IMG/VR virus record: IMGVR_UViG_2541047126_000023 | Origin: a virus | Lineage: Duplodnaviria; Heunggongvirae; Uroviricota; Caudoviricetes | Length of the DNA stretch: 4,520 bases | Strand: one strand, 5' to 3' | Shown: piece after piece, positions 2,496 through 2,523 of the stretch | Numbering within the stretch: position 1 is the stretch's first letter | Layout of the letters: each line of letters starts with the position of its first letter | The notes under the pieces: model-generated | Databases searched by the model: none | What the model was told of the DNA's origin: nothing | Seen by the model: the letters and a program-made list of their open reading frames with translations, nothing else | Program-made: the position numbers and the translations under genes

Positions 2496-2523
2496 ATGTT
2501 GATTACAAAAATGTAATCAACAT
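2496..2523. promoter_or_regulatory. Perfect inverted repeat ATGTTGATTACA-aaaa-TGTAATCAACAT (12-bp arms, 4-bp spacer), a candidate operator in the AT-rich region upstream of the binding-protein gene
   Basis: Verified base by base. A perfect TATAAT hexamer lies at 2550-2555, with TATACT at 2532-2537 and TTGACT at 2569-2574, so the palindrome sits in the -35 zone of a plausible sigma70 promoter reading toward the gene at 2688. Confidence 0.35.

Follow-up and report, generated by a model that had tools for sequence, protein, structure and literature searches.

CusR, which responds to copper and silver, and HprR (YedW), which responds to H2O2 and HOCl, are closely related response regulators of the OmpR family, with PcoR and SilR as plasmid paralogues. 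The gene paa/adfO is a virulence marker, whose product was reported to promote the adherence of EHEC and of porcine E. coli. The core of a palindrome upstream of paa was seen to resemble the HprR/CusR box, and this resemblance was then tested against sequences and the literature.

The published HprR/CusR box of the hiuH promoter in E. coli K-12 is CATTACAAAATTGTAATG. CusR and HprR share a recognition sequence and have very few targets in K-12, and the published gSELEX of these regulators was done with K-12 DNA, a genome without paa (PMC8249747). E. coli CusR binds AAAATGACAAnnTTGTCATTTT at cusC/cusR, and the plasmid gene pcoE is also under its control via TGACAAnnTTGTCAT (PMC11195947). In Pseudomonas, a palindrome for CusR, CopR and CzcR was validated by EMSA and mutagenesis and is printed as ATTCATnnATGTAAT, with ATTACATnnATAGCCT as the mutant; CzcR, IrlR and MmnR share it with CusR and CopR (PMC11195947). 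In view of the printed mutant, the wild-type palindrome was taken to be ATTACATnnATGTAAT. While this kind of site, the CusR/HprR box, is known, paa/adfO is new as a predicted target of it.

The palindrome and the paa cassette

In the window, which is the whole stretch of 4,520 nucleotides that was analysed, a repeat search revealed a 28-bp dyad at 2496–2523, composed of a left arm ATGTTGATTACA (2496–2507) and a right arm TGTAATCAACAT (2512–2523) that are 100% complementary and flank the four nucleotides AAAA. Of 2000 dinucleotide-preserving shuffles of the window, only 0.2% contained any inverted repeat that was perfect over arms of 12 bp or longer with a loop not exceeding 10 nt. Both the perfect 12-bp arms and their improbability by chance, as claimed in the preliminary description, were thereby borne out. 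The same account had placed the dyad in an AT-rich leader; the surroundings are indeed AT-rich (26–34% G+C), but the term leader does not apply, since the dyad lies 27–54 nt upstream of TATAAT and 165–192 nt upstream of the paa ATG at 2688. The features of the region are as follows.

1991–2490, + strand: remnant of a fimbrial major-subunit gene, a pseudogene labelled 'frameshifted; internal stop' by PGAP
2496–2523, no strand assigned: palindrome 12+4+12, from the repeat search and shuffles
2496–2501 and 2518–2523, no strand assigned: outer 6 bp of the arms, extensions specific to the EHEC lineage, neither conserved nor covarying elsewhere
2502–2517, no strand assigned: core box ATTACA-AAAA-TGTAAT, predicted dimer site of a CusR/HprR-family response regulator, from the match to the published box
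2523–2531, + strand: third half-site TGTAAGGTT, starting 5 nt past the box and filling the −35 zone of the predicted promoter
2550–2555, + strand: predicted −10 hexamer TATAAT, read in the sequence and kept in paa homologues
2676–2681, + strand: Shine–Dalgarno sequence AAGGAG of paa, read in the sequence and kept in plasmid copies
2688–3446, + strand: paa/adfO, encoding an AcfC-family protein of 252 amino acids with a periplasmic solute-binding fold, from ORF, PGAP and Pfam (SBP_bac_11, E = 5.5e-34)
3453–3480, + strand: terminator-like hairpin CGTCC-TTCA-GGACG followed by a T run, 3′ of paa, from the terminator scan

At 97% identity, the window corresponds to early-region DNA of a lambdoid/Rac-like prophage of the O157 type (PPompW type; OI-57 in EDL933), a prophage present in hundreds of E. 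coli genomes. The gene order in near-identical records is DnaT-like and P-like replication genes, DUF1627 (ydaW-like), the frameshifted fimbrial pseudogene, paa, hokD/gef and rem, where paa also goes by AdfO and Z2053/ECs1772 and carries the PGAP label 'AcfC family adhesin Paa'. The ydaW-like DUF1627 gene (ATG at 1094) contains an in-frame TAG at 1145–1147, which reads GAG in the Stx2a phage LC567818 and is common to strain NZRM4169; it is a nonsense polymorphism, and the gene is therefore probably inactive or restarting downstream.

The fimbrial remnant is Pap/Pix-like and ~85% identical to an intact gene of strain ECC-1470, which adjoins a PapB-type regulator and an usher. Alignment to the ECC-1470 gene revealed the true fimbrial homology to end at 2486–2490; PGAP extends the pseudogene to the stop codon at 2524–2526, which puts the dyad formally within its last codons. 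From ~2482 on, the homology is instead to cassettes of the paa type that IncF plasmids of E. coli, Shigella and E. albertii carry (73–89% DNA identity), and this shared cassette has its right end at ~3508, past the paa terminator. Because the cassette homology starts at ~2482 and the fimbrial homology stops at 2486–2490, the dyad is the first conserved feature of the paa cassette. The cassette edge lies ~12–18 bp upstream of the box, and the predicted regulatory site therefore travelled with paa. The junction between fimbrial and paa DNA is found 6–12 bp left of the dyad, with the microhomology ATT(A/C)C at the fusion. The moron was built by illegitimate recombination.

Remnants of the Tn3 family were seen near plasmid-borne paa-like genes (L006, 3682–4002; L010, 1432–2944). 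On pF41_1, 15 bp separate the end of a tnpA fragment from the box, and on a Salmonella Javiana plasmid a paa-like gene that has lost the box is immediately preceded by a truncated tnpA and a resolvase gene.

Match of the core to the CusR/HprR box

In a direct comparison, the K-12 hiuH sequence is TTCATTACAAAATTGTAATGCTGCTGTAAGGTTACC, and the corresponding part of the window is TTGATTACAAAAATGTAATCAACATGTAAGGTTTAT. The hiuH–hprR box and the paa box have in common the half-sites ATTACA/TGTAAT, the spacer length of 4 nt, the gap of 5 nt and the subsequent 9-mer; both point toward the regulated gene and lie at a similar distance from a −10-like hexamer. They differ in the spacer itself (AAAA in paa, AAAT in hiuH), in the flanking bases (G/C in paa, C/G in hiuH) and in the −10 hexamer, which is TATAAT at 27 nt after the third half-site in paa and TATCCT at 28 nt in hiuH. 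The inferred leader is ~126 nt long in paa versus ~25 nt in hiuH, and the paa site lies in mobile DNA and faces one promoter, whereas the hiuH site belongs to a divergent pair. Unlike hiuH, the palindrome of the EHEC-lineage paa extends to 12-bp arms.

The comparison was extended to cusC and to the silE, silC, pcoE and pcoA promoters, the latter four being read from a pco/sil island (L261); for silC, silE and pcoA, which make up half of the six reference sites, the box was assigned by position and motif. All of these promoters, and hiuH, show the same layout as paa, where an inverted repeat with a 4-nt spacer is followed by five nucleotides and a third half-site, with cusC reading ATGACA-ATTT-TGTCAT-TTTTC-TGTCAC. 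The analogues of the third half-site at cusC, silC, silE and pcoE are TGTCAC, TGTCAT and AGTCAC, at the 5-nt offset. The half-sites of the reference promoters are mostly ATGACA/TGTCAT, and only pcoA and hiuH have the ATTACA/TGTAAT of paa. The consensus [A/G]T[T/G]ACA-N4-TGT[A/C]A[T/C] is satisfied by window positions 2502–2517 and by all six reference sites. While the cus, sil and pco products handle metals directly, Paa is described as an adherence factor. The reference promoters lie at 1013–1067 of L259 and 4871–4925 of L260, with those of silE, silC and pcoE in L261; a spacer containing AAACAGA is common to the sil and pco promoters.

The Pseudomonas palindrome ATTACATnnATGTAAT has the same half-sites and 6+4+6 geometry as the paa core, and the likeness extends to an accessory element and to several paralogous regulators. 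It differs in belonging to another genus with other regulators and in serving the divergent cusR/pcoA2 pair, and a third half-site is unreported.

For quantification of the match, a weight matrix of 27 positions was built from the six reference sites (hiuH, cusC, silE, silC, pcoE and pcoA), with paa left out. It scored 22.97 bits at 2502–2528 on the + strand, facing paa, compared with 9.64 bits for the runner-up in the window and 7.95 bits for the opposite strand of the same box. The leave-one-out scores of the reference sites ranged from 12.9 to 31.2 bits. None of 1000 composition-preserving shuffles reached 22.97 bits, the shuffle maximum being 20.5, and at other paa loci the top match was the equivalent site, with 20–26 bits. 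To our knowledge, the consensus sequences of FNR, Fur, Zur, TyrR, ArcA, CpxR, RstA, OmpR, EvgA, UvrY, ArgR and LTTR do not fit both the orientation and the spacing of the half-sites.

Conservation among paa homologues

Homologues of paa were drawn from plasmids, IMG/VR prophages and metagenomes. ATTACA-N4-TGTAAT was found 168–238 nt 5′ of the start codon in all variants of 86–100% Paa identity except L174 and L202, and also in L208 (73%) and L199 (69%), where the flanking DNA shows no relation to that of the window. The matrix scan added L174 (86%), with the left arm ATGACA, and L177 (67%), with the left arm CTTACA, 127 nt before the ATG. The box is thus present in 12 distinct paa promoter variants of 67–100% Paa identity, its arms being invariant or nearly so; all changes are confined to the spacer or are alternatives allowed by the consensus, as in L174 and L177. 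In homologues of 67–95% protein identity, it lies 127–238 nt upstream of the gene.

Every box-bearing variant has TGTAAG(GTT), or a near variant of it, 5 nt past the box. In an ungapped alignment of the 12 paa variants and K-12 hiuH, invariant columns were confined to the box and to the third element's GT.A..T, with G2524, T2525, A2527 and T2530 as the invariant positions of this half-site (alignment A6). Identity to the window was 78–96% for the 27-nt composite site, compared with 44–79% for other non-coding DNA and 72–91% for the first 300 nt of the coding sequence.

The outer six pairs of the arms form in only 3–10 of 13 promoter variants and their covariation was unconvincing; the inner six pairs never vary and are therefore uninformative about structure. 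On this alignment, the perfect 28-bp dyad is best read as a lineage-specific extension, in EHEC, of a conserved 6+4+6 core. The extension of the arms to 12 bp possibly arose by chance, or by correction of a quasi-palindrome through template switching. Of the view that the 12-bp arms are the functional unit, only the inner 6+4+6, together with the third half-site, could be kept; likewise, in orthologous loci, the core and third half-site persist down to 67% Paa identity and the outer arms do not.

The matrix scan did not find the box in the paa homologues L009–L012, L196–L198, L202, L209 and L210, of which L009, L010 and L012 are Salmonella plasmids and L011 is an E. coli O8 plasmid. At least some of the boxless homologues have had their upstream region replaced, such as L010, where a truncated Tn3 transposase gene lies directly upstream.

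A spacer of five A's was observed in plasmid pEsST2350_SE_2 (L008, ~2817–2833), compared with four in its metagenome sisters L193–L195 (2818–2833); this lowers the matrix score to 10.6, from 23.8 with four A's. The fifth A may be a natural change that inactivates the box, or else an error in sequencing the homopolymer. In the most divergent box-bearing homologues, L199 and L177 (67–69%), the gene is followed by one for a 577-amino-acid DUF4116-repeat protein (L199, 3530–5263, − strand; L177, 2523–4256, − strand). In L199, a tail-fibre-assembly gene also follows, and the locus adjoins syd–queF. The two look like a different prophage cargo module with the same promoter.

Promoter layout, predicted regulation and alternatives

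Transcription starts were inferred from −10-like hexamers for the comparison of spacings. A −10-like hexamer occurs 28 nt after the start of the third half-site in hiuH, cusC, silE, silC and pcoE; at pcoA, no clear −10 was seen at this spacing in the promoter read from L261. In paa, TATAAT follows at 27 nt, and the variant L192 has the reference spacing of 28 nt. TATAAT is present in 7 of 11 paa promoter variants and TATGAT in two more, which upholds the designation of 2550–2555 as a promoter element in the preliminary description. A consensus promoter scan yielded no acceptable −35 partner for this hexamer. The dyad, which had been said to overlap the −35 zone, merely abuts it, and it is the third half-site that overlaps instead. 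Because a usable −35 is missing and all reference promoters of the regulator family are activated, an activator site is much likelier than a repressor operator. Thus, of the proposed dimeric repressor or activator operator, a dimeric-factor site for paa/adfO best explains the dyad, with a repressor much the less likely.

The paa core and the third half-site probably constitute a CusR/HprR 'copper box' (PcoR/SilR where present), serving as activator site that drives the TATAAT promoter. The earlier suggestion of specific control by a regulator without a name would stand in substance, with a CusR/HprR-type protein as a strong candidate. In the proposed mechanism, a phosphorylated dimer of CusR and/or HprR (PcoR/SilR in pco/sil strains) would bind the adjacent half-site and the inverted repeat, whose centre lies ~52.5 bp upstream of the inferred start. 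The third half-site would stand in for the −35, RNA polymerase would be recruited to TATAAT at 2550–2555, and paa/adfO would be transcribed from ~2562 with a leader of ~126 nt. As such, paa would be a horizontally acquired member of the CusR/HprR regulon, inducible by copper, silver, oxidative or chlorine stress. The hprR gene and the hiuH promoter are found in 5413 of 5426 complete E. coli genomes, and the prophage hosts therefore very probably encode HprR; cusRS is present in K-12.

Several observations speak against the copper-box reading. In paa, the −10 lies 1 bp closer to the box than in five reference promoters, the perfect TATAAT may allow activator-independent transcription, and the box is missing from several paa homologues. 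ECs1772 (paa) and cusCFBA were also assigned to separate expression clusters in one O157 growth-phase microarray, but neither copper nor an oxidant was applied in it, and it is uninformative about induction by either.

It is unlikely that the dyad is the operator of another dimeric regulator, such as a phage, plasmid or host repressor, with the likeness to the CusR/HprR box being coincidental or due to a paralogous OmpR-family regulator. A conserved inverted repeat before a promoter is generic operator anatomy, and related regulators can share sites, as do CzcR, IrlR and MmnR with CusR and CopR in Pseudomonas (PMC11195947). Against this, such a regulator would need to read the same composite site, and its gene did not adjoin the cassette in any context examined; the site persists across prophage, IncF-plasmid and chromosomal settings that have no linked regulator gene in common, and the match reaches the third half-site and the −10 spacing, beyond a coincidental palindrome. 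Furthermore, the search for other copies of TGTAATCAACAT dyads proposed in the preliminary description gave none above chance: in ~16.5 kb of near-identical prophage, including the HTH/Cro immunity region, only the dyad itself matched, and two 2-mismatch matches were within chance range. A set of prophage immunity operators was considered separately and rejected, as multiple half-site copies near repressor/cro were absent from the 16.5 kb. The least probable reading, that of a functionless chance product of AT-rich DNA, could draw on the low G+C content of the region and on the outer arm extension in one lineage only; its weakness is the rarity of such a dyad in the shuffles and a core that is kept where the flanks of homologues have diverged to near-random identity.

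The perfect arms would also suit a nucleic-acid hairpin, be it a terminator or RNA-stability element for a fimbrial or phage early transcript, or a cruciform or site of replication pausing. Folded as RNA, the 12-bp arms reach −13.8 kcal/mol (z = −3.3), and folded as DNA, −10.7 kcal/mol (z = −6.5). In addition, the 3′ end of the annotated fimbrial pseudogene, with its stop codon, overlaps the dyad. This is nevertheless highly improbable in view of the A+T-rich stem, which is followed by GTAAGGTTTATAC instead of a T run, the lack of any terminator in a scan of 2350–2750, and arms that pair over just 6 bp in all other paa promoters. Moreover, what remains of the upstream gene is dead and its homology stops short of the dyad, and plasmid copies have unrelated upstream DNA. 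A Rho-independent terminator and a conserved RNA or DNA hairpin were both discarded on the missing T run and on an outer pairing that is neither kept nor covarying.

More remote still is a relic or active site for site-specific recombination, such as a serine-resolvase crossover, at the edge of the mobile paa cassette. Res site I of gamma-delta/Tn3 is a 28-bp dyad of 12+4+12 geometry, the same as that of the dyad, and cross-context homology begins within ~20 bp of the dyad, which is close to the fimbrial/paa junction; plasmid copies adjoin Tn3-family tnpA fragments and one homologue adjoins a resolvase gene. However, the breakpoints of homology vary in position upstream of the dyad and do not fall at its centre, both inner half-arms are kept together while the outer, recombinase-type positions vary, and the resolvase-bearing L010 locus is devoid of the dyad. 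Neither a recombinase ORF nor accessory subsites were found in the window, in contrast to a res site with its resolvase gene and accessory sites. A crossover site resembling res site I was rejected on inner-arm conservation, off-centre junctions and the missing recombinase.

Returning to the predicted copper box upstream of paa, expression of an adherence factor would, if the box works, be tied to copper and silver, including copper-supplemented pig feed, and to oxidative and chlorine stress, as met in inflammation or with sanitisers. CusR and HprR, credited with essentially one or two targets in K-12, would acquire a further one in the accessory genome, for which the only precedent found was the control by chromosomal CusR of pcoE, a horizontally acquired plasmid gene. 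The locus would also be an example of a moron predicted to bring its own host-wired promoter. The chances appear even that the CusR/HprR regulon has a mobile branch associated with virulence, made up of paa/adfO and its plasmid relatives (ETEC, EPEC, E. albertii and Shigella) and cued by copper from host or feed or by inflammatory H2O2/HOCl. If this were true, the real role of Paa might be in copper or oxidant stress physiology, instead of or besides adhesion, and horizontally transferred genes would repeatedly have recruited two regulators that are regarded as 'single-target' in K-12. A literature search retrieved no paper tying paa/adfO to copper, CusR or HprR, and nothing on the regulation of paa/adfO (Z2053/ECs1772).

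A search of 185,579 species genomes for the exact 16-mer returned at least 120 matches in unrelated taxa. None of the matches listed was in Enterobacterales, and the search is therefore of no use for defining an E. coli regulon. At 10 of the 120 listed loci, a CusR/CopR-like regulator (42–67% identity) or PcoA/SilP/SilA-like genes were found in the same stretch of at most 8 kb, often less than 200 nt from the box, in cyanobacteria and in beta-, gamma- and deltaproteobacteria; a rough estimate of such copper-gene neighbours by chance is ~0.5 of the 120 listed loci. In viral contigs, the hiuH-type composite motif, with paa-type gaps excluded, gave 3 matches, approximately the number predicted by chance. 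Two ATTACA-N4-TGTAAT boxes within 8 kb were seen in four unrelated genomes (L015, L022, L042 and L049), and those of L022 (Nostoc) and L049 (Syntrophorhabdaceae) lie on either side of CusR/CopR-like two-component genes.

A second perfect palindrome was observed at 3566–3589, reading CCGATATGGGAA|TTCCCATATCGG. It comprises 24 bp without a spacer, has a central EcoRI site and is as improbable by chance in the shuffles as the dyad at 2496–2523. It lies between the right end of the paa cassette and the hok/mok homology of lambdoid/Rac-like phages, which begins at 3593–3616.
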